Of a stretch of 64,000 bases of DNA, positions 5,546 through 27,622 are shown piece after piece (within the stretch, counting starts at the first letter, position 1; each line of letters begins with the position of its first letter). Both the position numbers and the translations under genes were made by a program. The stretch comes from a virus. Its lineage: Duplodnaviria > Heunggongvirae > Uroviricota > Caudoviricetes. The stretch is from the IMG/VR virus record IMGVR_UViG_2671180676_000004, positions 1 through 64,000 of that record. The stretch is one strand, 5' to 3'. The notes under the pieces were generated by a model, which did no database searches, was not told the origin of the DNA, and saw only the letters and a program-made list of their open reading frames with translations.

Positions 5546-8500
5546 CTATATCTGCCCACCTACTCCTTTGAACTTTTCAATAAACGTGACGATTTTCTGG
5601 AAAACCGTCTGTTTTTTCGTTTTATATTGCGGGTTTAACGGACTAAGTTTTGGTAATGTCTCGTTTAATTCTGTGCCATTTTCGGTGGCGTATTCGCGTT
5701 TTAAAGACGTGCGAATATAGCGTTTCGCCGCCTCTTCATTGAGATTTTCTTCTTTAATCAACGCTTCTGCTTCACGTAGCTGTTCGTGTTGAGCAAAGGT
5801 AAAGAACGCGTCAATGATGCTGGCTTTGTCTGGTAAATCATCCAGGTTCGTTTGCTGAATAAAATCGACCACCAGGCCCTCTTTAGCACGGTTCCCTAGG
5901 CTTGAACGAATTAAGCGTTTGACCTCTTCGATCATTTCGCCCTTGCCTTTATTTTGTCTGTTGTGTTCGAAAATCAGTCCAAGGATATAATCCAGGTTTA
6001 TTTCCTGAGACTTCAGCAAATCGACCTCAAAAACTACGTCATCCCAGTCAGTGGTTGATTTCTCTTTTTTCTCAGCTTCTTTCTCACGGCGCTGCCAGTC
6101 GCGAATATCGTTATAGGCAGAACGATAATCCTGAATCTTGCGATCAGCAGGGAGACGAATTGTTTGCAATTCAGCGAACTTTTCATCATCCACATAATGT
6201 TCTGCTTTGAATTTTTCTACCGCAACAGGATCGCTAAGATCGATTTGTTGCAGGGCTTTTAGCGTGGCAAATTCATCATAGTTTTGCAGGATGTTCTCGG
6301 CACGCAGGTATTCGCCAAACAGTTTAACGAAGTCTTTCTTCTCTTTTTCACTTTCAATACTGGCAGGGTCAGGGAACCGTTGTTCCAGTTCTGAAACTAC
6401 TGCCATAAAGCCGCGTTTAGCTTCACCTGTAGCAGCATCAGTAAAGCCTTCCATATACTCTGCATAACTCTTTTCTAACACTACATTTTTGGTGTTTTTG
6501 TCACCAAACAGCGTTATGGCATCGATGGTTGAGCGTTCCAGATCGCGGAAAGTGACGATATTACCGAAGGTTTTAGTCGCGTCATAAATGCGGTTGGTAC
6601 GGGAAAATGCCTGCATCAGGCCGTGAAAACGCAAGTTTTTATCGACGAATAGCGTGTTTAATGTTGGAGCATCGAAGCCGGTTAAAAACATCCCCACGAC
6701 GATTAACAAGTCAACATCCTGATTTTTAACCCGCTGAGCCAGGTCCCGATAGTAGTTCTGAAAACCCTTGCTATCAGTGCTGAAATTCATTTGAAAATGG
6801 TCGTTATACTCACGAATTGCAGCGTCCAGAAACTCTTTAGCACTGCTGTCCATTGCACTGGTATCAAAAGATTCATCGGATATTTCACCAATGGCATTTT
6901 GTTCTTCATTAGCGGCAAAGGAGAAGATTGTCGCAACACGCAGTGGTTTATAGGTAGCAGATTTATTAGCTGCTTCCTCTTGTAACCGTTTAAACGTCGC
7001 GTAATAGGCTTTCGCGGCATCCACGCTGCTCACTGCCAACATAGCATTAAAACCTTTTGAGCCAGGGAAGGTACGGTGGGTTTTCTGGCGGAAATTATTC
7101 AGAATATATTGCGTGATTTCCTGAATACGCATGGGATGAAGAAACGCCTGCTGATTTTCAGCCGCACTCAGTTTTTTCTCGTCAGTTTCTGTCTCTAAAG
7201 ACTTAAACTGTGGCCGCACATCGTTGTAGTCCACCTTGAATTTGAGCACTTTTTCGTCACGAATCGCATCGGTAATTACATACGAATGCAATTCACGACC
7301 AAATACGCTGGCGGTTGTTTCTGAGCCTAAGGCGTTTTCCGGGAAAATAGGGGTGCCGGTAAAACCAAACTGATAATAACGTTTGAATTTCTTCTTCAGG
7401 TTTTTCTGCGCTTCTCCAAACTGGCTGCGGTGGCATTCATCAAATATAAACACCACTTGCTGATTATATACAGGCAGGTCGCTTTCTGCTTTCATCAGGT
7501 TATTGAGTTTCTGAATAGTAGTGACGATAATTTTGTTATCGTCCTTATCCAGATTTCGTTTAAGGCCTGCGGTATTTTCCGAGCCGTTGACGCTGTCTGG
7601 CGAAAAACGCTGATATTCCTTCATGGTCTGGTAATCGAGGTCTTTCCTGTCGACCACAAAGAAGACTTTATCAATAAAGTCCAGCTCTGTTGCCAGACGC
7701 GCGGCTTTAAAGCTGGTGAGGGTTTTACCAGAACCGGTAGTGTGCCAGATATACCCACCGCTTTCCGGTTTTGACCAGTTCTTCGCTGTAAAGGAACTCT
7801 TAATTTTCCACAGAATGCGCTCGGTGGCGGCAATCTGGTACGGTCGCATCACCAGTAGCGTCTGACTACTGTCAAAAACGCTGTAGTTCACCAGAACATT
7901 CAGCAGAGTATGTTTCTGGAAAAAGGTAGCGGTAAAGTCTTTGAGGTCTTTAATCAGCGTGTTGTCTGATTTCGCCCAATTCATGGTGAAGTCAAAACTG
8001 TTTTTATCGCGCTTTGTGGTGTTGGCAAAATAACGGGTATCAGTGCCGTTGGAAATGACGAACAGCTGCAGATACTTAAACAGGGAATTTTCGCTGTTAA
8101 AACTCTCTTTACTGTAACGATGTATCTGGTTGAAAGCCTCACGAATCGCCACCCCGCGTTTTTTTAGTTCGATTTGCACCAGCGGTAAACCATTAACCAG
8201 GATCGTGACGTCATAACGGTTAGCATGAGAACCCGTCTGTTCAAACTGCTGGATAATCTGCACCTTATTGCGCATGAGATTCTTTTTATCTATCAAATAG
8301 ATGTTCTCAAGTCGCCCGTCGTCAAAAATAAAGTCGCAGATATAGTCGATATGGATTTTACGGGTTTTATCCAGAATACCATCGCTGGGGTTGTCCAGAT
8401 ACTGCTCCGTGAAGCGCCGCCACTCGCTGTCATTAAACATCACACCATTGAGGCTCTGAAGCTGTTCCCGAACATTGGACAGCATTGCCGACTGTGATTT

Positions 8501-8662
8501 TACGGAAATAAATTCATAACCCTGATTCCGCAGGTCCTGAATCAGTTCACGTTCCAGGTCCGATTCGCTCTGGTAGCTGTCGCTTGTTTGCTCAGCTTTG
8601 ATGTACTTATCAAGGACGATAAAGTTATTGGATTCAGCAATGGTGTGTGTTTGATGAGTCAT
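5546..8662 (-). CDS. hsdR: Type I restriction enzyme R subunit
   Basis: 1038 aa; SF2 motifs TGSGKT and DECH ([10 protein letters not shown]); directly downstream of hsdM-hsdS. Confidence 0.9.
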
Positions 8663-8784
8663 AGCGCATCCTTTGTGCCGCCTGGCAAGAGCCGGAAGGG
8701 CGTTAAGAGTGACTTCCGGCGCGTAAAAAAATAGTCTATATACTGACCGGGTGTTAAGGTGGCCCGATCGGTAGCAATGGTCAA

Positions 8785-10023
8785 TTAATTACTGACAGTT
8801 TCAGGTTTCGGGAAACTGAACAGTAAATCACGGTAGTATTCGTATTGTTTCTGGCGCAACTCGATTTCACGCGGGAGACCTTCGGTGATGGAGTTGGTCA
8901 GGGTGTCGAATTTATCGAGCAGAGCAGATATTCGCTCTTGTTTCTGTTTATCAGGCAATGGCACTGGTAATGTTTTTATAATATCTGCATTCAAGTTACT
9001 GACCGACCCGCTATTGATTTTACTTTCCCAATAATTTTTCACCTTTTTTGATGAAAGATAGTGATACAGATAATCAGCATTTAATTTTTCACCAAAATTG
9101 CTGATTGATGCCCATCCATCATGGATAGCTCCGGTTATCCTTAAAATATATGGTCTGCCAAAGCTCATAGAGTTAGAAATGACGAAATCACCGGGGTTCA
9201 AGATTCGCGATTTTTGGGCACCCTCTGCAGTTATTTTTTGTAAGGTTTTGTCAATGTATTTAGAGCCGGGGATAGTATCTCCGATTTTAATCCATGGGAT
9301 ACCATTTCCTTGTTCAGTAAGATAATTAACAATTGGCCTGGGGGATGCCCCACGTTGTATTTTGGCTACTTCTCCCAATGCCTTCCACTCAACCTCACCC
9401 TCTTTAAAACTCAGCAACTGGTCGCGATAGTAGTTGTACTGTTTTTTACGCATGTTAAGCTCAGCGGTAAGCTCAGCGGTAAGTGCAGTAAACTTATCCA
9501 GAATCCGAACAATTTCAGACTGGATGGCAAGGGATTTTCCCGGGGCGCTGGGACAAGGGATGGGTATTTGATAGTTTAAAATTGCATCTTTACTGCCTCG
9601 AGGCATCTTTGCCCCTTTAGCGTGCTGCATACTGTAAGAAAAAAATGAATCCGACGATAATGCATAGTAGAGATATTCTGGACTAATAATTTTTTTACAG
9701 TCTGCTAAAATGCGTATAGCAAGGACATCACCACTGCACCCGCCATTATTCTCCGCCATCCAAACTTTCTTTAAATATGGGCGAATATTACCTAAAAGAA
9801 TATCACCTGGCTCATAGGCAGTTAAACGTGCCGTATTAGGCTGATAGGTGGCGTCAATGCGACCGCCTTTATCAGCAAGGAGATTATCAACGCCAACGAA
9901 TGAAGTGGCATCAAGTTTATCAGCATCAACTTTGGTTGTTGAATACCCGGCGATATCGCCCACTGCTTTCCACTCAACCTCAACCCCATCCAGCAATTTT
10001 TCCAGATAACTCAACTCGCTCAT
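8785..10023 (-). CDS. hsdS: Type I restriction-modification specificity subunit
   Basis: 412 aa with two target-recognition halves, each ending in a conserved coiled spacer (…[16 protein letters not shown] / …[16 protein letters not shown]); overlaps hsdM by 4 nt. Confidence 0.85.
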
Positions 10024-11582
10024 TTCTGCACCTCGCAGCCTTCAATTTCAGCCACAATCGCATCAATATCTTTACGCAACTGGTCGATTTTGCTGACCGT
10101 GGTTTTCAGCTCTGCATTCAACTCAGCGATATCGATAATTTCGCGAGTATCTTTCACTTCAACATAGCTGCTCACCGACAGGTTATAGTCATTAGCAACA
10201 ACAGTCTCAAACGCAACAGATTTCGCCAGATGAGCAACATCTTCCTTGCTGGCAAATACCTGCATAATTTTTTCTATATGGGCATCGGTCAGAATGTTGT
10301 TGTTAGTCTCTTTTTTGAACAGTTCGCTGGCATCAATAAACTGAACTTTGGTATCCGTTTTATGTTTAGACAGCACCAGAATATTGACGGCAATGGTGGT
10401 GCCAAAGAACAGGTTCGGTGCCAGTGAAATCACGGTTTCGACATAGTTATTGTCAACCAGATACTGACGGATTTTCTGCTCCGCGCCGCCACGGTAAAAA
10501 ATGCCCGGGAAGCAGACAATCGCAGCACGACCTTTGGCAGAAAGATAGTTCAGCGCATGTAATACAAACGCAAAGTCAGCTTTGGATTTGGGGGCCAGAA
10601 CGCCAGCCGGGGCAAAACGTTCATCGTTAATCAGCGTCGGGTCATCGCTGCCAATCCATTTCACCGAATACGGCGGGTTAGAAACGATGGCATCAAACGG
10701 TTTTTCATCTCTGAAGTGCGGCTCAGTCAGCGTATTGCCCAGCTTGATATCAAACTTGTCGTAGTTGATGTTGTGCAAAAACATGTTCATACGCGCCAGG
10801 TTATAGGTCGTATGGTTGATCTCCTGACCGAAAAAGCCTTCTTCGATGATGTGGTCATCGAACTGCTTTTTCGCCTGCAACAACAGCGAACCGGAACCTG
10901 CTGCCGGGTCGTAGATTTTGTTAACGTGGGTCTGGCCGTGCATTGCCAATTGTGCAATCAGCTTAGAGACGTGCTGCGGTGTAAAGAACTCGCCGCCTGA
11001 CTTACCAGCATTCGCGGCATAGTTAGAAATCAGGAACTCATAGGCATCGCCGAACAGGTCAATCTGATGTTCGTTGAAGTCACCAAGTTTTAACCCTTCA
11101 ACCCCTTTCAGAACCGCAGCCAGGCGGGCATTTTTATCTTTAACGGTGTTACCCAGGCGGTTACTGGTGGTATCGAAATCAGCAAACAAACCTTTGATGT
11201 CAGCTTCTGAAGGATAACCGTAAGCAGAACTTTCGATAGCAACGAAGATGCTGTTTAAATCTGCGTTCAGTCTGTCATTGGTATTTGCTTTCGCCGCTAC
11301 GTTGCAGAAAAGCTGACTGGGGTAGATGAAGTAGCCTTTAGTTTTGATGGCATCGTCTTTAATGTCATCAGTAATTACGCTGTCATCCAGTTTCGCATAA
11401 CAGATACTGTCATCACCGGCTTCAATATAGCTGGAAAAATTTTCGCTGATAAAACGGTAGAAAAGTGCGCCCAGAACGTATTGCTTAAAATCCCATCCAT
11501 CGACCGAACCCCTGACATCGTTAGCAATTTGCCAGATTTGACGATGAAGCTCTGCACGTTGTTGAATACTTGTCATTTTCAT
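10020..11582 (-). CDS. hsdM: Type I N6-adenine DNA methyltransferase subunit
   Basis: 520 aa; SAM motif [10 protein letters not shown] and catalytic NPPYS. Confidence 0.9.
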
Positions 11583-12708: not shown

Positions 12709-12972
12709 ATGGGATTTAATATGAACGAATGGAACATAGCAGCCAAAAGCCAGGAAGAAAGGAATAAAGTTAACGTTGACCTGGCTGCCAGGGGGGTTGC
12801 CTACAAAGAGCGATTGAACATACCCGTCATAGCGGAACAGGTAGCCCGTGAGCAACCTGAGAACCTGCGCACCTATTTCATGGAACGGCTACGGCACTAC
12901 CGGCAGTTAAGCCTCCTGCTGCCAAAAGGAAACGATCCGGTATATCAGAAAGAAGATATAGCCAAAAAATAA
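12709..12972 (+). CDS. Hypothetical protein (83-87 aa)
   Basis: ORF; alternative ATG at 12721; immediately upstream of the UmuD'-like gene. Confidence 0.4.
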
Positions 12973-13070
12973 CGCGCCACCAGGCGAGCGCAAAGCATCG
13001 CGCTATTGCACACTTCAAGCATCTTTAATGTATACTGTATGGATAAACAGTACTCTGAGGTGAAAACGCT

Positions 13071-13460
13071 ATGGGCTTCCCTTCTCCTGCGGCGGATTAT
13101 GCTGAGAGTCGTATTTCTCTTGATCAGCAGATAATTAGACATCCTTCAGCGACCTACTTCTTGAGGGCAGCTGATAGTCATCATCGTGAGGGAATATTAC
13201 AGGGTGCATTGCTGGTGGTCGATTCCTCACTTACCCCGGTTGATGGTTCTCTGCTTGTATGCGCTCTGGATGGGGAATATCGCGTAAAAAGATACCGGAA
13301 GTATCCACGTCAGCATCTGGAGGATTTGAGAACCGGTAAGAAGGAAGCATTGCCAAAGGATGACGATGGATGCACGGGCAGCAATGCCGTGTTTGGTGTG
13401 ATCACTCACATTATCAACGACGCAAGAAGTGGCGAGTTTGATGATTGTCCCGTGATGTAG
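13071..13460 (+). CDS. UmuD'-like S24-peptidase domain protein
   Basis: Begins MGFPSPAADY…HPSATYF, matching UmuD from its Cys-Gly autocleavage site onward; Ser and Lys positions kept (ADSH…VKRY); no umuC partner. Confidence 0.6.
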   Translation: MGFPSPAADYAESRISLDQQIIRHPSATYFLRAADSHHREGILQGALLVVDSSLTPVDGSLLVCALDGEYRVKRYRKYPRQHLEDLRTGKKEALPKDDDGCTGSNAVFGVITHIINDARSGEFDDCPVM

Positions 13461-13496
13461 GAGAACTGATTAGGCGGTGCAATGCACCGCCTTTTA

Positions 13497-14597
13497 TCAC
13501 ACTGCGCGGAATGCGATCTCGCCAGGTATTACTTCGCCTTGCCAATACATTTGGGCAGCAACGCGATCTGCGAGGTCACGATAAATAGCCGTAAATTCGC
13601 TATCTGGACGACTAATAACGGTTGGTGTTCCGTTATCCAGATCTTCACGAAGAGAGATATGAAGTGGCATTTGGCCTAACAACTGCGTGTTGTATTTCTC
13701 GGCCAGTTTCTGTGCGCCACCGGTGCCAAAAATTGGCTCGTGATGACCGCAGTTACTGCAAATATGCACACTCATGTTTTCGACGATACCCAGTACCGGC
13801 ACTTCGACTTTTTCGAACATCACAATGCCTTTCTTCGCATCGATCAGCGCGATGTCTTGCGGCGTAGTTACCACAACCGCACCAGTTACAGGAATGTTCT
13901 GCGCCAGCGTCAACTGAATATCACCAGTGCCCGGCGGCATATCGAGAACGAGATAGTCCAGATCAGGCCATAGAGTTTCCTGCAACATCTGCATCAGCGC
14001 CTTGCTGGCCATCGGTCCACGCCACACCATTGCATTGTCGTCGGTGACCAGATAACCAATAGAGTTGGTTGCCAGGCCATGAGACATGATAGGTGCCATG
14101 TGAGTACCGTCCGGTGAGGTTGGACGTTGGTTTTCCGCGCCCAGCATGGTTGGAATTGATGGACCATAGATATCGGCATCCAAAATACCAACTTTCGCAC
14201 CTTCAGCAGCCAACGCCAGTGCCAGGTTTACCGCCGTGGAGGATTTACCCACGCCGCCCTTGCCTGAGCTGACGGCGATAATGTTCTTAACGCCATTAAT
14301 GCCTGGTTGGTTTTTGACGCGCTTAAGCGTGGCAATGTTGTACGACAGCTTCCAGTCAATAGCCTTTGCGCCAGTGATACGGAGCAGATCACCACTACAT
14401 TGCTCTTTCAGGTCTTCAAAAGGCTTATTCCACACGAAAGGCATGATTAGTTCGACATGCAGTGTGTCATCCATCAACGCAACATGGTGTAACGCTTTAA
14501 GCGTAGTCAGGTTGTGTTTCAGGGTTGGGTGCTGAAAATTAGCCAGCGTACCGGCTACCATTGCTCTCAGGGCATCCGGCGATTTGGACTCGCTCAT
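13497..14597 (-). CDS. apbC: Fe-S cluster carrier ATPase Mrp/ApbC
   Basis: 366 aa; P-loop SSGKGGVGKSST; MinD/Mrp family; divergent from metG as in E. coli. Confidence 0.95.
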   Translation of the reverse strand: MSESKSPDALRAMVAGTLANFQHPTLKHNLTTLKALHHVALMDDTLHVELIMPFVWNKPFEDLKEQCSGDLLRITGAKAIDWKLSYNIATLKRVKNQPGINGVKNIIAVSSGKGGVGKSSTAVNLALALAAEGAKVGILDADIYGPSIPTMLGAENQRPTSPDGTHMAPIMSHGLATNSIGYLVTDDNAMVWRGPMASKALMQMLQETLWPDLDYLVLDMPPGTGDIQLTLAQNIPVTGAVVVTTPQDIALIDAKKGIVMFEKVEVPVLGIVENMSVHICSNCGHHEPIFGTGGAQKLAEKYNTQLLGQMPLHISLREDLDNGTPTVISRPDSEFTAIYRDLADRVAAQMYWQGEVIPGEIAFRAV

Positions 14598-14754
14598 CCC
14601 GTCTCCTTTATTTTAATTTGCGCAATTGTCGCCTTGTAGTGTACTCCAGCTACGACATTTAATCATTTATGAGAAATGCTGTTATCACATGGCAGACATA
14701 AGGCCATTTTGTTACTATCAAGCCCCTTTTCACTACAAAGAAGTAATGCCTACT

Positions 14755-16788
14755 ATGACCCAAGTCGCGAAGAAAATTCTGGTGACGTGCGCGCTGCCGT
14801 ACGCTAACGGCTCAATCCACCTCGGCCATATGCTGGAGCACATCCAGGCTGATGTCTGGGTTCGTTACCAGCGAATGCGCGGCCACGAGGTTAATTTCAT
14901 CTGTGCCGACGATGCCCACGGTACGCCGATCATGCTGAAAGCACAGCAGCTTGGTATCACACCGGAGCAGATGATTGGCGAAATGAGTCAGGAACACCAG
15001 ACTGATTTCGCAGGCTTTAACATCAGCTATGACAACTATCACTCGACGCACAGCGAAGAGAACCGTCAGTTGTCTGAGCTTATCTATACTCGCCTGAAAG
15101 AGAACGGTTTTATTAAAAACCGCACTATCTCTCAGTTGTACGACCCGGAAAAAGGCATGTTCCTGCCGGATCGTTTTGTAAAAGGCACCTGCCCGAAATG
15201 TAAAGCGCCAGATCAATACGGCGATAACTGTGAAGTCTGCGGCGCAACATATAGCCCGACTGAATTGATCGAGCCGAAATCGGTGGTTTCTGGCGCTACC
15301 CCGGTAATGCGTGATTCCGAACACTTCTTCTTTGATCTACCTTCTTTCAGCGAAATGTTGCAGGCATGGACCCGCAGCGGCGCGTTGCAGGAGCAGGTGG
15401 CGAACAAAATGCAGGAATGGTTTGAATCCGGCCTGCAACAGTGGGATATATCCCGCGATGCGCCTTACTTCGGTTTTGAAATTCCGAACGCGCCGGGCAA
15501 ATATTTCTACGTCTGGCTGGACGCGCCGATTGGCTACATGGGTTCCTTCAAGAATCTGTGCGACAAGCGCGGCGATACCACCAGCTTCGATGAATACTGG
15601 AAGAAAGACTCCACCGCCGAGCTGTACCACTTCATCGGTAAAGATATTGTTTACTTCCACAGCCTGTTCTGGCCTGCCATGCTGGAAGGCAGCAACTTCC
15701 GCAAGCCGACCAACCTGTTTGTTCATGGCTATGTGACGGTGAACGGCGCGAAGATGTCCAAGTCTCGCGGCACCTTTATTAAAGCCAGCACCTGGCTGAA
15801 TCATTTTGACGCTGACAGCCTGCGTTACTACTACACTGCGAAACTCTCTTCGCGTATTGATGATATCGATCTCAACCTGGAGGATTTCGTTCAGCGTGTG
15901 AATGCCGATATCGTTAACAAAGTGGTTAACCTGGCGTCCCGTAACGCTGGCTTTATCAATAAGCGTTTTGACGGTGTGCTGGCAGGCGAACTGGCTGACC
16001 CGCAACTGTATAAAACCTTCACTGATGCTGCTGAAGTGATTGGTGAAGCATGGGAAAGCCGCGAATTTGGTAAAGCTATCCGTGAAATCATGGCATTGGC
16101 TGACCTGGCTAACCGCTATGTCGATGAACAGGCTCCGTGGGTGGTGGCGAAGCAGGAAGGACGCGATGCCGATCTGCAGGCGATTTGCTCTATGGGCATT
16201 AACCTGTTCCGCGTGCTGATGACGTACCTGAAGCCGGTACTGCCGAAACTGACTGAACGTGCAGAAGCATTCCTGAATACAGAACTGACCTGGGATGGTA
16301 TCCAGCAACCGCTGCTGGGCCATAAAGTGAATCCGTTCAAGGCACTGTATAACCGCATCGATATGAAGCAGGTTGAAGCACTGGTGGAAGCATCCAAAGA
16401 AGAAGTGAAAGCCACAGCCGCACCGGTAACTGGCCCACTGGCTGACGACCCGATTCAGGAAACTATCACCTTTGACGACTTCGCCAAAGTTGACCTGCGC
16501 GTGGCGCTGATTGAAAACGCAGAGTTTGTAGAAGGTTCTGACAAACTGCTTCGCCTGACGCTGGATCTCGGTGGTGAAAAGCGTAATGTCTTCTCAGGCA
16601 TCCGTTCCGCTTATCCAGATCCACAGGCACTGATTGGTCGTCACACCATTATGGTGGCTAACCTGGCACCACGTAAAATGCGCTTCGGTATCTCTGAAGG
16701 CATGGTGATGGCTGCTGGCCCCGGCGGGAAAGATATCTTCCTGTTAAGCCCGGATGCTGGTGCTAAACCTGGCCACCAGGTTAAGTAA
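14755..16788 (+). CDS. metG: Methionyl-tRNA synthetase
   Basis: 677 aa from [11 protein letters not shown]; class I HIGH (HLGH) and KMSKS motifs; zinc knuckle CPKC…CEVCG; C-terminal tRNA-binding domain. Confidence 0.97.
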
Positions 16789-17623: not shown

Positions 17624-18193
17624 ATGGATGTGATGGAAACCCAGAACCAACAAACAAAACCTCTGAATAACATTTATGCGTGGATTCTAGCGTTCATGCC
17701 TTTCTTCTTTGGAGTATCGCCGGAAGAGTATACCAATTACGCTATTATAATTGGGGGTGTAACTACCATCGGTTTGTTAGTAGCTGACAGAATGGCTCTA
17801 TCGGAGTCTGGCTGTGAACCACCTTCAATTCTATGGGGGGTATTCCTCCTGCCTGTCTATCTCTGGAAGCGCGCGACTATTACAAAAGGCAGCAGAGTGC
17901 CATTTATCATAATCGTTGCGTCGCTGGCTTGGGTTATCTTCATCGGCATCCCACACAAGGACGAGGTTGCTCTTGAAGAAGCAGCCTGCCCTCTCGTGAC
18001 AACTATTCTGAAAGAGAATAACGGTTCGACTGCACCAAAATGTATGAAGGTGACAATAGAGGACAAGGTGACGGATAAGTTCTATAGAGCAACGGCTACA
18101 CTAGACAATGGTAATGACATTAACATTACTCTGGAACTTACCGGCGACAGGAACTTCTACGTCCGTGTTCCAAATGTTTATCTGAACAACTAA
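17624..18193 (+). CDS. Membrane protein with four predicted TM helices and a soluble C-terminal domain
   Basis: Hydrophobic segments IYAWILAFMPFFF, AIIIGGVTTIGLLV, ILWGVFLLPVYLW, FIIIVASLAWVIFIGI; alternative start 17633. Confidence 0.5.
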   Translation: MDVMETQNQQTKPLNNIYAWILAFMPFFFGVSPEEYTNYAIIIGGVTTIGLLVADRMALSESGCEPPSILWGVFLLPVYLWKRATITKGSRVPFIIIVASLAWVIFIGIPHKDEVALEEAACPLVTTILKENNGSTAPKCMKVTIEDKVTDKFYRATATLDNGNDINITLELTGDRNFYVRVPNVYLNN

Positions 18194-18289
18194 CGGTTGC
18201 AACTCATTGATAATGGCGGTCACAATTTGATTCTTTTCTATAAGAATCCGTTGATCGCCACTACTCCCCTTCCATACCCGCAATCACAT

Positions 18290-19100
18290 CCTTAAATATC
18301 AATAAGTTATAGTTGTTTATACAATCAAGAAAACAACTGAATAACAGATCAACGAAACATCAACGCTTTCACCCGATTTGGTCTAAAAAATTGACGTTTT
18401 CACACATCACTGCTTATACCCGTAATTCTACGCAGCAGACAGCGCCACAGCGTCCAATTTTCACCACAGACGACCCAACACACTACCAACAAAAACACAC
18501 GCTCAAAATCGTTCCCGTTGCGTTACATAACCATATAAACAACTTATTTCAGGCATAACAAAACAACTAAATAACACATATGCCATTCCCAAAACAACCA
18601 ACCTCTTTATGGCAGGCTACCGAAAAGACCCACCTCTTCTTCCCAGGCTACCGGACAACCAACCTAACTTTCACAGGCAATCCGAAAACATTCATACGCG
18701 CGATACCCACGACACGCCATTACCCAAACAGCGAAGAAACATCAGAATCACTGAAACCCCAACGAAGCCTGTAACCGCAAGGTTTCTCTCAATCCCAAAA
18801 GACACGAAACATAACAATCACGGGAAACGCCATTACCCAATACACGAATAACTACAAAAGCCCTTCACGCACTCCAGACAAACAACTCAAACACAATAAC
18901 GAAAGGAATCGCCCACCTGCCATTACTCCATACACGGAGAAGAACAATCACCAAAACGACGAGAACACCCCATAGAAGAACCACCGCAAAACGAACGAAA
19001 CCATTTACACCGACAGAGAGAACAACACGCCCAATTCACCAACAGAAATAGTCGCCGTATAGAACGTTCTGGAAGGAGTGAGCATTAACGCCTATAGAGA
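18290..19100 (+). repeat. A+C-rich, G+T-poor strand-skewed region with degenerate tandem repeats
   Basis: Repeated units such as acgccattacccaa(a/t)ac… and caggctaccg…; track ORFs here have implausible Thr/Pro/His/Gln-rich translations. Confidence 0.5.
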
Positions 19101-19261
19101 GGTTGAGACAGATAAAACACGAAGAAAACACAACATGTATAGCGAAGAAGCCAGGTATGTATAAGTGGGGAGGGAAGGAGGGGTGTCGCCTCCTTTTTCG
19201 TATTTATTCAACTCCTGATTTTATCCCCCGTAACACCCCTACGGTCAGCCTTCGGTCCATA

Positions 19262-19395
19262 CAGGGAAAAGGTTGCATCCCGCTACAGAAACGGCTGGGT
19301 TGCCTTCGGGGAACGGCTGGAGGTTTTCAGGGAAACGGTCGAGTTGCCTGTGTGGATTTCGGGAAAAGGCTCGATGCCGGTTCAGGAACGGCGGC
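19262..19395. repeat. Iteron-like direct repeat array (GGGAAAcGGc)
   Basis: Six copies (gggaaaagg, agaaacgg, gggaacgg, gggaaacgg, gggaaaagg, ggaacgg) spaced about 21-24 bp, one gap about 31 bp. Confidence 0.45.
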
Positions 19396-19728
19396 GTACC
19401 GGTATAGCGTGAGGGAGAGTTGCGGCTACCCACCTGTAATGTGCGGGAAGAAGAGAGGCGCTCACGTGCAGGCGAACTTACTTACCGCTGGATTCCCTCT
19501 GAATGCCCAGCTACAGCGTAATTGTGCCAGACAGCCAACGGGTCACAATCGATTTCAGTAGGTTTTCGGGGAGAGGATTATTCTGCCCACCAGCCACCTT
19601 CGGCCACTAAATCAGAATAATGTAAAAAGTGTACTCGATACTGAACCTGAAAACTCACTGCCAAAACAACATTCACCGGAATAAAATCCTTTTTCGCCTG
19701 TGCGTTATTGCGATAATAACACCAACGA

Positions 19729-21741: not shown

Positions 21742-21764
21742 ATGACCATCCTGTTTCCCGCAGG

Positions 21765-21850
21765 CTAAAAACACCAACCTCTTACCTCCAGGCAACCGAC
21801 AAACCCACCTGTTCCCGTCCGGCTACCGCAACTTTCCACTTTGACGCCTT
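21765..21850. repeat. Repeat related to 18590-18680
   Basis: accaacctctt…caggc(a/t)accg(a)ca(a)acccacct… shared between the two loci. Confidence 0.45.
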
Positions 21851-21914: not shown

Positions 21915-22397
21915 ATGAATTTTATCGCTACTGTAAACGCACCCGCACATGGCAATATCGCTGTAACGTTCTCTGACATTGAAAAACGAGTACTTGGTGC
22001 ATGGCGCGACAATGAGACGGTAGAACTGTCAGCACAAGAAAAATGCATTATTGCACGCGACATCATTGGCAATCGTCGTTACTCGCGGGTATTTGAGAAA
22101 GCGTATGTGGTAAATTCTGGATTCGGAACGTTCGTCTTTCCGGTGCGCTCCGGGCGATTCTGCCAGTCCAAGCTGATTGAGTTCGCTACGCAGATTTCTG
22201 TCTGGATTAAAACTCAATCGTCGTTCAAATTTTCCGACGATGAAGCAGTATCGCAGGGGATGCGGATCGCCAACAATGCGATTAAATGCAAAAACATTAC
22301 GTATACCGCTGGCGTTGACACATGGAAACTGTTTTGCGCTAACTTTATGCTGAATGTATACGCAAGCAACCGCATCCACATCCTTGATGGCGTGTAA
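21915..22397 (+). CDS. Hypothetical protein (160 aa)
   Basis: ATG 21915 with SD AAGGA. Confidence 0.5.
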   Translation: MNFIATVNAPAHGNIAVTFSDIEKRVLGAWRDNETVELSAQEKCIIARDIIGNRRYSRVFEKAYVVNSGFGTFVFPVRSGRFCQSKLIEFATQISVWIKTQSSFKFSDDEAVSQGMRIANNAIKCKNITYTAGVDTWKLFCANFMLNVYASNRIHILDGV

Positions 22398-22404
22398 CTG
22401 AGAA

Positions 22405-22428
22405 GAGGGCCAGAAACGGCCCTTTATC
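22405..22428 (+). terminator. Terminator-like hairpin (gagggcc-agaaac-ggccctt)
   Basis: Stem-loop right after the stop of 21915..22397; weak T tract. Confidence 0.45.
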
Positions 22429-22440
22429 TATAGCCACCAG

Positions 22441-22525
22441 CTGCCGCAGGGAAATTTTCAGAAACGGCGAGGAACGTATTCATGAGCCGACGGGGAACGG
22501 CCAGGATTTTTTCGGGAAACGGCTG
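22441..22525. repeat. Second iteron-like block (GGGAAAcGGc-type repeats)
   Basis: cagggaaa, cagaaacggcg, aggaacg, ggggaacggcc, cgggaaacggctg. Confidence 0.4.
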
Positions 22526-22987
22526 CATTCGCCTTTATGTAGAAAAAACATCGGGAAGCTGGTGGAATCCAACCAGCGGTTGTCGGACAGGTGAGCGGGG
22601 AAAATTATGATGACTTTCGTCACCTGAGACATCCAGATTTCTTTCGTAGCATAATTACATACGTGATTAAGTGGTGTGATTATGTGAAAAATCACGCGCA
22701 CATAATACGCGAGCGGATACGGAACAAAACAAAATGCCGATCCGCGCCGACAAATAAACGCGGATCATAAAGCAAGACTAAAAGCCAATGATTAACCATA
22801 CTCTATAGCGCAATATAACGCGTTTTAAGCGCGTTAATGTGTTAAGTAATGGGTATGTACTGGTAAGGATATAAAAGCGCGTCTATGGCGTTATTTTGGC
22901 GCTTATTTTTATGTTGTTGGAGTGAGTTAAAGACAATAAAAAACGCGCTAATGATGGCGCGTTATGGTGGGAGTATTGGAAACGAAA

Positions 22988-23006
22988 AAAGCGCCCATAG
23001 TGGGCG
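22988..23006. terminator. Bidirectional hairpin (agcgccca-tag-tgggcgct)
   Basis: On the minus strand it is followed by TTTTTT, so likely terminates the minus-strand operon ending at 23014. Confidence 0.6.
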
Positions 23007-23013
23007 CTCGATT

Positions 23014-23244
23014 TTATTTGTGTAAACTGATTTTAAATCCCATTTCTACAAACGCTTTTAACATTAAAAATATATCAGCGTCGTTCACGTCTGCTTTTTT
23101 TCGCTCCTGGTCGCTCAATAAGTCAATTTTGCGCGTCGTTTCATCTATAAGCTCGACTGCGCGCCCAGCGTAACCAGCGATCCCAGCGATGCGATTAACA
23201 TAATATTCATTATGGACGTTAACGCCAGCGATAAGAACAAACAT
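23014..23244 (-). CDS. Hypothetical protein (76 aa)
   Basis: ORF in the AT-rich cassette. Confidence 0.4.
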   Translation of the reverse strand: MFVLIAGVNVHNEYYVNRIAGIAGYAGRAVELIDETTRKIDLLSDQERKKADVNDADIFLMLKAFVEMGFKISLHK

Positions 23245-23515: not shown

Positions 23516-24166
23516 TTACGCTTTGAAAGCATCAGCTAAATAATTGTAGAAATCATTTTTAATGAAGCGATATTGCTGAGTACCAGCTTTCGCACTCCCA
23601 GCTCCTTTGACTTTTTCAACAAGTCCAAGACGTTCGCAAAGATTGATCAACTGGTTGGCTTGAGTATAGCCAGCGTCCAATTTAATTTCACACGCTTTTT
23701 TAGCTTCATTCATTAAATCGAAAACAGCGCCATTGGTGAACGTGTCGATCTCGTCGTTAATCATATCGATTAAAGCGAATACACGAGATCCAGACATATC
23801 AGCGATGGAATAAACGCATTTACCAGATTTAATTGATTTAACCAGATAAACCAGTTTTTCCAGAGAATAACTATTAGTCATTGCATCACGAAAAAATACT
23901 TCTGGCGCTTGTTTGCTTGCTTTAATCGCATAGTAGAAAACAGAGCATAATTTTTCGTCTTCTACTGCGTTTACGACGTTGTTGATGAAGTAAGCAAGTT
24001 TAGTGGTCGCAGCTTGCATATTTGCTTTGTCTGCTTTAGTGTGCGTACCATTTTTATAATGTTCGTTATATGTTTGAGTTGCCAGATCTGCTTTTTCGCG
24101 CAGTTCATCGGATACAATGGAAGCAGCTTCAATGATGGATTTTTTAGAAATGATAATGTTAGCCAT
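23516..24166 (-). CDS. Hypothetical protein (216 aa)
   Basis: ORF in AT-rich DNA; no recognisable motif. Confidence 0.5.
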   Translation of the reverse strand: MANIIISKKSIIEAASIVSDELREKADLATQTYNEHYKNGTHTKADKANMQAATTKLAYFINNVVNAVEDEKLCSVFYYAIKASKQAPEVFFRDAMTNSYSLEKLVYLVKSIKSGKCVYSIADMSGSRVFALIDMINDEIDTFTNGAVFDLMNEAKKACEIKLDAGYTQANQLINLCERLGLVEKVKGAGSAKAGTQQYRFIKNDFYNYLADAFKA

Positions 24167-24761: not shown

Positions 24762-25286
24762 TCAAAAAGGCAAAATTCGTTCAACCCAATCGAACAAAAC
24801 AACTATTTTTCTACCGTTCTCGACACGTAGTGTAACCTGACAAGCATCTGCGCCTGCTGACACCCCCTCAATTTCACGGCCATCCGCCATGTACACCCTT
24901 ATAGATTTGTTTGCTTTGTAGGCTTGGTTGCAAATTGCAAAAAAATCGCGGCGTGATGGCCGATTATCGACATAATCAGGGTGAACTGTTAGTCGACCTT
25001 TGAAATCGTGAGCGATACTGTCAACCACACCTGATTCAATTGTACTAATGCGTTCAAGTGGGAGCCTTATACGATTTTCTTTGTCAAAAGGGGCTGGGCA
25101 AAGGTCAACTTTGTTACGAGATGGCATGAGGCCATAAACGTACATGCAAAACGCCTGGCCATCTTCGAGAGTGACCCTTACAGGAATTTGTTCTCTGCGC
25201 CAGAACATCAGTAGTTTTTCAACGTTAGTGTAATCTCGCGGCCAGAGTTCAGCTTGGATACCGTAGGTAATATCTTTGGTTGTCAT
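24762..25286 (-). CDS. Hypothetical protein (174 aa)
   Basis: Start set at MTTKD to avoid overlap with the upstream lipoprotein gene. Confidence 0.45.
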   Translation of the reverse strand: MTTKDITYGIQAELWPRDYTNVEKLLMFWRREQIPVRVTLEDGQAFCMYVYGLMPSRNKVDLCPAPFDKENRIRLPLERISTIESGVVDSIAHDFKGRLTVHPDYVDNRPSRRDFFAICNQAYKANKSIRVYMADGREIEGVSAGADACQVTLRVENGRKIVVLFDWVERILPF

Positions 25287-25290
25287 GTCA

Positions 25291-25713
25291 TCACAGAGTT
25301 GTTGGCAGAATGTCGATGTCACCAGAATTGCTGGTGAACACCCTGAACGCTTTTGTGTCTCCATTCTTCAGAGTCGTTTCTCGCTCTTGACGAGCGGGGT
25401 TTAGAGCACATAAACCTGCACCTTCAAGAGATGCACCCACAATTAATTCTCCGGCATTTAAATGGAAAGTCGCTTTTTCGCCTGTAGCCAGTTTTGCGAC
25501 AGTTTCGCCGTTGATGAAAATGGAAGCATCACATCCAGCTCCTACAAAACCTGTGTCTCTCATTACCACCAACGTAGCTGGCGCTGCGCTTTGATACTTG
25601 AACACTTTGGCCTGCGGTGCTGGTTTGGCGTCATGGATTGATATTGGGCGTGATTGGCACGCGGTAAGCATCAACACTGGTAACGTTAGTAGAGGGAGAA
25701 GCGAGTATTTCAT
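25291..25713 (-). CDS. Putative lipoprotein (140 aa)
   Basis: Signal peptide with lipobox MKYSLLPLLTLPVLMLTAC. Confidence 0.5.
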   Translation of the reverse strand: MKYSLLPLLTLPVLMLTACQSRPISIHDAKPAPQAKVFKYQSAAPATLVVMRDTGFVGAGCDASIFINGETVAKLATGEKATFHLNAGELIVGASLEGAGLCALNPARQERETTLKNGDTKAFRVFTSNSGDIDILPTTL

Positions 25714-26062: not shown

Positions 26063-27622
26063 CTAATCTCGTTTCAGAACTCCAAAATCGAATGCTCCAT
26101 CAATAGGCAATACACCTTCTGCAAAGCCAGGTGTGGTGTCGATGATGTGTTTTCGCTCATAAGAGTGAGACAACAGGTATTTGTTGCTAATGTCAATGAA
26201 ATCAGTGATAAAACACACGTTTGCCTGATTTTTTTTGGCTCGTAAGCCACGACCGACACGCTGCCTCATTTCAACTTCTGCTTTCCCACCACCAGCAAGA
26301 ATGACCGCACCAACGCTTGGCACATCAACACCGACATCCAGAATAGTCGAGCCTATTAAAACATCTATTTCTCCAGACGCTAAACTGTTCAGCTTTGCTT
26401 GCCTTGTCGCCTGGTTAGATTCCCCATAGATGAAGTCAACTCTAAGGCCGGACTCTTTCATCATTTCCATCAGGATTTGCCCGTGGCGTTTAAGACGAAC
26501 CAGAGTCATACAATTGAGAGAATGTTGCTTATAGAGCAATGCTTCGCGAACAATGGCCTCGTTACGTCCCAAATTATACACGATCCCCAACTGATAAGCC
26601 TTTTGGTAGGCGGTGCTCATACCAACTCTAAAATTGAGGTGTTTGTTGGCAAGTTCGGCCTTGATTCTGGCCTCGTCTGGCTTGTAGGCAACTTTATGAT
26701 AAAGGAAGTACGGCTTTGCCAGAATGCCTCGATCAATCAGGTACTTTTCTGTGACTTTAATTTCAATTCGCCCGGCCACCGCCATCAGGCGCATGTTGGC
26801 TTCCGTCGAATCCTTCATGAACGGCGTGGCTGTAAGCGCCAGACGATAGTCTGCGTTCACACATAATCTGGCGATGTCATAGAAATTTGAGCCTGAAGAC
26901 TCATGCGCCTCTTCCAGAATAAGAAGAGAGACACTTGAAAGGAAGCGTTTCACCAACTCCCGACGTTTGAGGTGGTAGCTTTTCTTATCTGGTGTTGCAT
27001 CGCGTGGTGGTTCTTCGAGGAAACTTGCAAGAGTTTGAACTGTAGCGACGTTGATATGTCGTGATACCTGGAACTCACCCGAGCCAATGACTCCAACCTT
27101 TTGGTCTTTTAACCACGGTTCGCCATTTTCGGCGCGGTAGTCGATGGATCTCTGGAAGTTTTCGGCCATTTGAAACATCAGAACAGAGCGGGTTGTTAAA
27201 AATAATGTCATTCGACCGATACGTGCAGCTGCTTTGCAGGCAACGTTAGATTTCCCGCCACCAGTAGCGATCTGCGCAATCATCATTCCCTCTCGAACCA
27301 GTGTTTCCACAGTCTGATCCTGATACGCATAATCAGGATTGTATGGGAATGGGTTAACCGCAGGATTTGGTTTACCAAGCGCCGGGGCTTTGTCTTTGCG
27401 GATATGAACACATTTGATGCCCGCCTTGTTCAAGTTCGCCGCTACAGGCTTGGCAAAGCCAGCAGGGAACGAGTTTTTACTCCAGTTGAACATCGTGCTT
27501 GTGCCCTTCCAGTCGCCAGTCTCGACTTCGTAGCTCAACATCTGTTGCACCATTTGCTTTACCTTGTCATCTGCGCCAGAAATAAGCGCATTAACTGCGT
27601 TAGATACAATCCGAACAGTCAT
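26063..27622 (-). CDS. SF2 DEAD/DEAH-box-type helicase
   Basis: Motif I ATGGGKS, motif II LEEAHE, motif VI QRVGRGLR. Confidence 0.8.
   Translation of the reverse strand: MTVRIVSNAVNALISGADDKVKQMVQQMLSYEVETGDWKGTSTMFNWSKNSFPAGFAKPVAANLNKAGIKCVHIRKDKAPALGKPNPAVNPFPYNPDYAYQDQTVETLVREGMMIAQIATGGGKSNVACKAAARIGRMTLFLTTRSVLMFQMAENFQRSIDYRAENGEPWLKDQKVGVIGSGEFQVSRHINVATVQTLASFLEEPPRDATPDKKSYHLKRRELVKRFLSSVSLLILEEAHESSGSNFYDIARLCVNADYRLALTATPFMKDSTEANMRLMAVAGRIEIKVTEKYLIDRGILAKPYFLYHKVAYKPDEARIKAELANKHLNFRVGMSTAYQKAYQLGIVYNLGRNEAIVREALLYKQHSLNCMTLVRLKRHGQILMEMMKESGLRVDFIYGESNQATRQAKLNSLASGEIDVLIGSTILDVGVDVPSVGAVILAGGGKAEVEMRQRVGRGLRAKKNQANVCFITDFIDISNKYLLSHSYERKHIIDTTPGFAEGVLPIDGAFDFGVLKRD

Follow-up and report, generated by a model that had tools for sequence, protein, structure and literature searches.

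Two phased arrays of a short conserved motif in an SSU5-type phage-plasmid, predicted binding sites for a DNA-binding protein

Results

Organization of the locus

The repeats described here form two intergenic blocks in a stretch of 64,000 nucleotides of viral DNA (hereafter the window), and both blocks are placed outside transcription units. Block 2 is always immediately preceded by the gene of a conserved 160-aa protein (phrog_1641; positions 21915-22397, + strand). From the other side it is approached by an operon on the - strand, whose last gene spans 23014-23244, and block 2 thus sits at converging transcription. The - strand also encodes a family-specific 216-aa protein (phrog_1513; 23516-24166), 1 kb from block 2, and a protein of the FljA family (24762-25364), 2.3 kb away.

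Segment 19100-22700 of the window is 99.9% identical to the E. coli plasmid pUTAK-6-1 (111,466 bp) and shows 93-98% identity to the Escherichia phages CMS-2020a, Cyrano and PhiR41_1. Weaker matches were obtained with plasmids of Klebsiella, Enterobacter, Citrobacter and Salmonella, with Yersinia pestis pMT1 and with phage SSU5. Because of the matches to the three phages, pUTAK-6-1, pMT1 and SSU5, the window was assigned to a phage-plasmid of the SSU5/pHCM2/pMT1 type. Phage-plasmids of the SSU5 type, S. Typhi pHCM2 and Y. pestis pMT1 among them, are frequently met with in E. coli, Klebsiella, Salmonella and Enterobacter and in some cases bear resistance genes. A plasmid replicon and a partition system are recognizable in them. 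The cargo of the window (5546-11576 and 13497-16788, coordinates converted from the pUTAK-6-1 annotation) comprises a complete type I restriction-modification system, an ApbC/Mrp-type ATPase, a full-length methionyl-tRNA synthetase, the theta subunit of DNA polymerase III and an UmuD-like peptidase.

Two arrays of one motif

The preliminary description had claimed that the repeat family of block 1 recurs in 22405-22525, and that this is not due to chance. The repeated core is ~10 bp long, (G/C)(G/A)G(G/A)AA(C/A)GG(C/T), and runs head-to-tail on one strand, with copies about two, sometimes three or four, helical turns apart. Used as the degenerate pattern [GC][GA]G[GA]AA[CA]GG[CT], which is derivable from block 1 alone, it matched the 64-kb window ten times, always on the + strand: six matches fell in 19264-19392, four in 22411-22523, and none outside the two blocks. 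In 200 first-order Markov simulations of the whole window the mean number of matches was 3.6. The largest same-strand cluster within 150 nt was one match in 189 runs, zero in 10 and two in a single run, as compared to the observed clusters of six and four. The expectation for four matches in a given 113-nt stretch, calculated by us from the simulation figures, is ~0.003, hence block 2 is not a chance echo. Both claims were thus borne out, the second by the statistical motif test. A position-weight matrix was made from the ten strict copies, all of which score at least 14 bits. Apart from these copies, the highest score in the window is 13.1 bits, and no site of at least 14 bits was detected in the ~66 kb of pUTAK-6-1 scanned outside the window (1-65,880 of the record).

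Block 1 (19264-19392, + strand) is located 3.1 kb upstream of block 2. Its six copies, recognized by the strict pattern and by the weight matrix, start at 19264, 19286, 19308, 19330, 19361 and 19383, giving spacings of 22, 22, 22, 31 and 22 nt. In block 2 three + strand copies recognized in the same two ways are in helical phase: CAGAAACGGC at 22459-22468, GGGGAACGGC at 22492-22501 and GGGAAACGGC at 22514-22523, with spacings of 33 and 22 nt. On the same strand a half copy, GGGAAATTTT (GGGAAAtttt; 22449-22458), follows a CCGCAGGG element that is invariant in the alignment, and the sequence has a degenerate copy, GGGAAGCTGG, at 22553. In both blocks, therefore, one motif is directly repeated at intervals of helical turns, the arrangement of an iteron-type array.

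The fourth strict match of block 2, a second CAGAAACGGC (22411-22420, + strand), overlaps the loop and the 3' arm of the terminator hairpin 22401-22429, whose loop is AGAAAC. This agrees with the earlier observation that the terminator loop carries the motif. The copy is 48 nt from the next one, off the helical phase, and reads CTGGAAACGCC in most other lineages. Because it is out of phase and only partly conserved, its membership in the array is uncertain.

Conservation of the arrays

Searching viral contigs with the 160-aa protein yielded 76 loci with 67-100% protein identity. The last two copies of block 2 (22492 and 22514), 22 nt apart and just 3' of the 160-aa gene, were present in 76 of the 76 loci including SSU5 and pMT1, and constitute a universal core pair. 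Block 1 was found in most of the loci, 2.3-4 kb upstream of block 2; in pMT1-type lineages and a few others it was not found in the 4 kb upstream. The infectious phage SSU5 has both blocks, and in its block 1 the spacing is identical (22, 22, 22, 31, 22) with different spacer sequences. Both arrays, with the core (G/A)GAAACGG, were also retained in loci identified through the most divergent homologues of the 216-aa protein (53-62% identity).

In an alignment of 13 diverse sequences the pairwise identity of the three in-phase cores was 0.87 (22459), 0.89 (22492) and 0.94 (22514, the best conserved copy), as compared to 0.61-0.81 for the spacers and 0.59 for the next 180 nt. The mean pairwise identity of the copy in the terminator loop was 0.78. 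In relatives, 92 distinct arrays provided 269 pairs of adjacent copies, of which 160 were 22 nt apart and the rest mainly 31, 33, 34 or 44 nt, counts that are inflated by shared ancestry, just as conservation among close relatives partly reflects common descent. These other spacings are close to whole numbers of helical turns, and a 48-nt class corresponds to the terminator-loop copy. That spacing stays while spacer sequence drifts argues for constraint at the DNA level. Taken together, the comparisons indicate that the arrangement of the arrays has been held by selection over the entire SSU5/pHCM2/pMT1 supercluster.

A scan of viral sequences for the motif found it almost only in the SSU5/pHCM2/pMT1 family. 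Judging by their hosts, most of the matches listed in the genome-wide scan look like chance occurrences. An unrelated GC-rich contig (IMGVR_UViG_3300046714_000194) carries at 1500-1700 a cluster of GGGAAACGG in both orientations, directly 3' of the gene of an AAA_25 (RepA-like) helicase, whose end was read as a winged-helix-like tail. This cluster is possibly an origin-like analogue that shares the 9-mer, perhaps by coincidence.

Neighbouring genes and the candidate binding protein

The 216-aa protein combines a coiled coil at its N-terminus with a C-terminal winged helix. Comparisons identified nothing more specific than a generic winged helix, with TubR and AspA among the structural neighbours, and no informative match to a viral structure was obtained. 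Homologues were not found outside this group of phage-plasmids, within which the gene is syntenic with block 2 even in the most distant members. In transcriptomes of an LF82 lysogen the gene (CYRAN_113) was near background (PMC9928086). By its position and fold, the 216-aa protein is the best candidate for the binder of the repeats. The plasmid sequence scanned has no third array near a regulator gene that could give a clue to autoregulation; as no copy of the motif lies near the promoter of any candidate regulator, there was no sign of such control.

The FljA-family protein ('repressor of phase-1 flagellin', PF03614, E 2.5e-84) has a weak Hfq-like match at its C-terminus. Its gene is conserved in the whole family including pMT1, is expressed in the LF82 lysogen, and may be a moron that silences host flagellin. 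The FljA family acts on RNA, and such a protein fits poorly, as the binder, with the DNA-level evidence.

Phased and clustered direct repeats are typical of parC and tubC and of some pac sites. This feature, together with the TubR and AspA likeness of the winged-helix protein encoded nearby, would suit a centromere-like site bound by an adaptor of the parC/tubC type, or a packaging site wrapped by the small terminase. However, the neighbourhood contains no gene for a partition NTPase (ParA, ParM or TubZ). What we take to be a P1-type parA, a gene with the sole annotation 'AAA family ATPase', is located elsewhere (pUTAK-6-1 26290-27525). The terminase genes are ~9 kb away, whereas pac is usually in or next to the small-terminase gene. 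Both functions are therefore considered unlikely.

Terminators and the question of DNA or RNA

The hairpin at the end of the 160-aa gene (22401-22429, + strand; stem AGAAGAGGGCC/GGCCCUUUAUCU) has a calculated energy of -15.6 kcal/mol and a z-score of -5.1 relative to shuffled sequences. In other lineages the stem is kept by compensatory changes (GGGCC/GGCCC versus GGGGC/GCCCC). A GC-rich gene-end hairpin with a U run and a compensated stem, it has the properties of an intrinsic terminator. A terminator-like hairpin with a T run (19172-19198, + strand), conserved in a Salmonella plasmid, SSU5 and other loci, lies ~65 nt 5' of block 1. On the - strand five serial terminator-like hairpins (23009-22989, 22963-22942, 22767-22738, 22711-22695 and 22624-22609) end the converging operon before it reaches the array. 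This series follows the last - strand gene, and several of its members read AAAAACGCG..CGCGTT. An isrK-like Rfam match at 22938-23007 was weak (19.9 bits, below threshold); small - strand RNAs could conceivably be made from 22609-23009. As terminators precede both arrays and the - strand hairpins end the converging operon, the arrays appear to be shielded from transcription on both sides.

RNA folding of the arrays was no better than that of shuffled sequences (z-scores +0.19 and +0.61), no relevant Rfam match was obtained at E <= 1, and RNAalifold detected almost no covariation (term -1.04). A known or structured RNA family was rejected on these grounds. Open reading frames annotated over block 1 in some records (CYRAN_104, SSU5_109) were not called by PGAP, and the 22-nt period, together with indels of lengths not divisible by three, speaks against coding by the array.

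There are some indications that the repeats could act at the RNA level: in 3' regions reached by read-through they would be single-stranded motifs bound by protein, as targets or sponges of an FljA-like protein or CsrA. Every copy reads in the sense direction of the genes upstream, GGA occurs often in the repeat units, a low-level signal was seen for CYRAN_104 in the LF82 transcriptomes, and the FljA-family protein with its weak Hfq-like C-terminus is encoded close by. Nevertheless, both arrays are 3' of terminators, one of them maintained by compensatory changes; structure beyond that of shuffles, covariation and Rfam matches are lacking; the strict helical-turn spacing has no obvious rationale in RNA; and AACGG, where the core is best conserved, is no determinant for CsrA. 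We regard action in RNA as rather improbable. Since the arrays follow terminators and fold like shuffled sequence, they resemble a protein-binding array at the DNA level rather than an RNA element, and the repeats most likely act as DNA sites.

Chi octamers and the variable segment between the blocks

A Chi octamer in - orientation (22434-22441; CCACCAGC on the + strand), conserved in most lineages, closely borders the in-phase copies of block 2 on the left, and a second one, GCTGGTGG (22558-22565, + strand), lies just to the right of the array. The two octamers flank the in-phase copies in opposite orientation, and the array is thereby enclosed by an 8-bp inverted repeat. The right-hand Chi of other lineages is found ~45 nt further to the right, a positional turnover in which its presence is kept and its position is not. 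One more Chi octamer is located at 19587-19594, ~195 nt after block 1.

Chi octamers at both borders, and the variable gene content and length (about 2.3-4 kb) of the segment between the blocks among lineages, would be expected if the repeats were a functionless relic, left by tandem duplications or serving as linker homology for swapping cassettes. Yet conservation is higher in the cores than in the spacers, the spacing is preserved despite spacer divergence, and the motif is retained at 53-62% protein identity. An origin of this kind is thus as doubtful as action in RNA.

Other repeats and palindromes near the arrays

A different repeat family, with three ~30-nt copies (..CACCTnTT..CAGGCTACCG..; 21744-21831, + strand), is situated just 5' of the promoter of the 160-aa gene and is conserved in pMT1 and a Salmonella plasmid. 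The first unit (21744) includes GTTTCCC, the inverted core of the motif described above; the family may be a diverged relative of that motif in inverted form. A sister array of three ~30-nt units (..CACCTCTT..CAGGCTACCG..) occupies 18596-18686. The two arrays are offset by 3.1 kb, and each is upstream of a transcription unit that ends at one of the blocks.

The sister array lies within ~0.9 kb without a credible open reading frame (18180-19070), where the strand bias is extreme, with a GC skew of -0.3 to -0.63 and an AT skew that reaches +0.65. This region holds repeats of the type GCCATTACCCA..ACACGGAGAAGAACA and is conserved in SSU5, Salmonella and distant Klebsiella and metagenome loci. The 0.9-kb unit is downstream of a conserved promoter-like site, TTGACG-N17-TTATAC (18392-18420), and is followed by the terminator 19172-19198. 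It may give rise to a long unstructured RNA or act as a Rho-loading leader. Between the A+C-rich region and the terminator there is a purine-rich stretch with repeated CGTATAGAG-like units (19060-19165), which is much longer in a distant locus (L272).

The palindrome AAACAANTTGTTT occurs in perfect form at 2624, 3353, 16873, 16924, 19731, 20215, 31022 and 60456, and with one mismatch at 18537, 21118, 21882 and 30997. Allowing at most two mismatches, 18 sites were found as compared to 6.6 expected, and no shuffled sequence reached 18. In the 18.5-22 kb region small genes with terminators of their own carry the palindrome downstream of a sigma-70-like promoter and upstream of the ribosome-binding site. 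The element resembles an operator of early or moron genes, either one for a global repressor or a translational one.

Relation to the plasmid replicon

The analogy with handcuffing drawn in the preliminary description implies a plasmid initiator. The RepA gene (RepB family; pUTAK-6-1 12833-14047) is outside the window, ~39 kb from the blocks, and is flanked by a different iteron, TATGCTGTCAGCGGT, with ~3 copies upstream (12820-12880) and ~12 downstream (14050-14580). The sequence upstream of repA (12720-12790 of pUTAK-6-1) is GATC-rich and contains a DnaA-box-like element. The repA gene with its TATGCTGTCAGCGGT arrays is the true plasmid replicon, in the classic oriR/incA layout. No copy of our motif was detected near repA in the weight-matrix scan of pUTAK-6-1. 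Conversely, no initiator-type gene adjoins either block, the genes next to the arrays being without a Rep-family match. The surroundings of the arrays contain no conserved DnaA boxes, just single one-mismatch matches at non-homologous positions, and no IHF consensus; their AT-richness is moderate (maximum 70-78% in 40-nt windows). With RepA elsewhere and served by other iterons, the motif absent there and DnaA boxes missing here, a literal handcuffing model of copy-number control is unsupported. Although two direct-repeat arrays with ~22-nt phasing resemble iteron replicons, it is highly improbable that the blocks are RepA iterons of the P1 oriR/incA kind, and this reading was rejected because the RepA motif is different and located elsewhere.

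Two origin markers were tried and discarded. Over the whole plasmid, GC skew follows gene orientation and gives no signal at the blocks. Chi polarity fitted a two-domain model at 16 of 20 sites, but the permutation p was 0.22 and the best break was at 82.3 kb, not at block 2. A natural 52-kb deletion derivative is uninformative on autonomous replication, since it keeps both RepA and block 2.

The blocks had also been proposed to be paired sites for one protein. Of this proposal, a single, conserved repeat family with the character of DNA sites was confirmed; obligatory pairing was not, as block 2 is universal and block 1 is missing, within 4 kb, from the pMT1-type lineages. Since block 1 has been lost there and in a few other lineages, plasmid life is possible without the pair. 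The two arrays may be in contact, though not of necessity in every lineage.

Discussion

We propose, with a probability of roughly 0.55, that both blocks serve one sequence-specific DNA-binding protein as iteron-like arrays of binding sites. This prediction is drawn from the sequence comparisons: the single orientation of the copies, their helical-turn spacing, the higher conservation of cores than of spacers and the location outside transcription units all point to DNA sites for such a protein. The putative binder is probably encoded by the phage-plasmid itself. At each array it would occupy one face of the helix cooperatively and assemble a stable nucleoprotein complex.

Two tentative suggestions of similar weight can be made for the role of such a complex. 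It might be a secondary (phage-mode) origin or the control element of one, or it might have a regulatory or roadblock function at the borders of the variable segment of small genes that the blocks bracket. In a fuller form of the first suggestion, likewise speculative, the insulated arrays would constitute a second replication or control locus, with a lytic origin and, at a distance from it, an enhancer or control array after the manner of P4 ori and crr, served by the 216-aa protein. Through R-loop priming, such an origin might also draw on the 0.9-kb A+C-rich untranslated unit, along with the RNase H and UvsW-like helicase that the element itself encodes. A classical theta origin is made less likely by the convergent transcription at block 2, an uncommon setting for an origin, and by the absence of DnaA boxes. 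An origin or control site would explain the conserved 2-kb non-coding stretch in the family. As deeply conserved, insulated arrays, the blocks supply short probes for a direct binding test, with two or three proteins as candidate binders.

We found no previous description of these repeats in the literature searched. They would be phased binding-site arrays of the kind known on plasmids and phages, but they fail the applicable tests for the established classes, having no adjacent cognate Rep, partition NTPase or DnaA boxes. Like the P1-type iterons of oriR and incA, which flank repA, they are head-to-tail direct repeats on one strand, about two turns apart, with two arrays per molecule; unlike these, they have no initiator gene between or beside them and no DnaA boxes, and the element has its own P1-type replicon elsewhere with a different iteron. 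They share with parC of R1 (bound by ParR) and tubC of pBtoxis (bound by TubR) the phased direct repeats in two groups and the nearby gene of a small TubR/AspA-like winged-helix protein. They differ in that no ParM, TubZ or ParA gene is adjacent, and in that the groups are 3 kb apart and do not flank one promoter. Head-to-tail direct repeats with a 22-bp period, all on one helical face, are also reminiscent of tandem pho boxes and other response-regulator sites of the OmpR/PhoB type.

In the satellite phage P4, ori and crr are two iteron clusters ~4.5 kb apart, both bound by the alpha primase-helicase. The present arrays differ from these in having no adjacent gene for an alpha-like primase-helicase and in that block 1 is dispensable in some lineages, and an origin role is putative here. 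As in P4, however, two arrays of one short motif (19264-19392 and 22411-22523, with distances of 2.3-4 kb in relatives) lie a few kb apart in a phage able to live as a plasmid, and by analogy ori and crr are a plausible model for an origin with an enhancer acting in cis.
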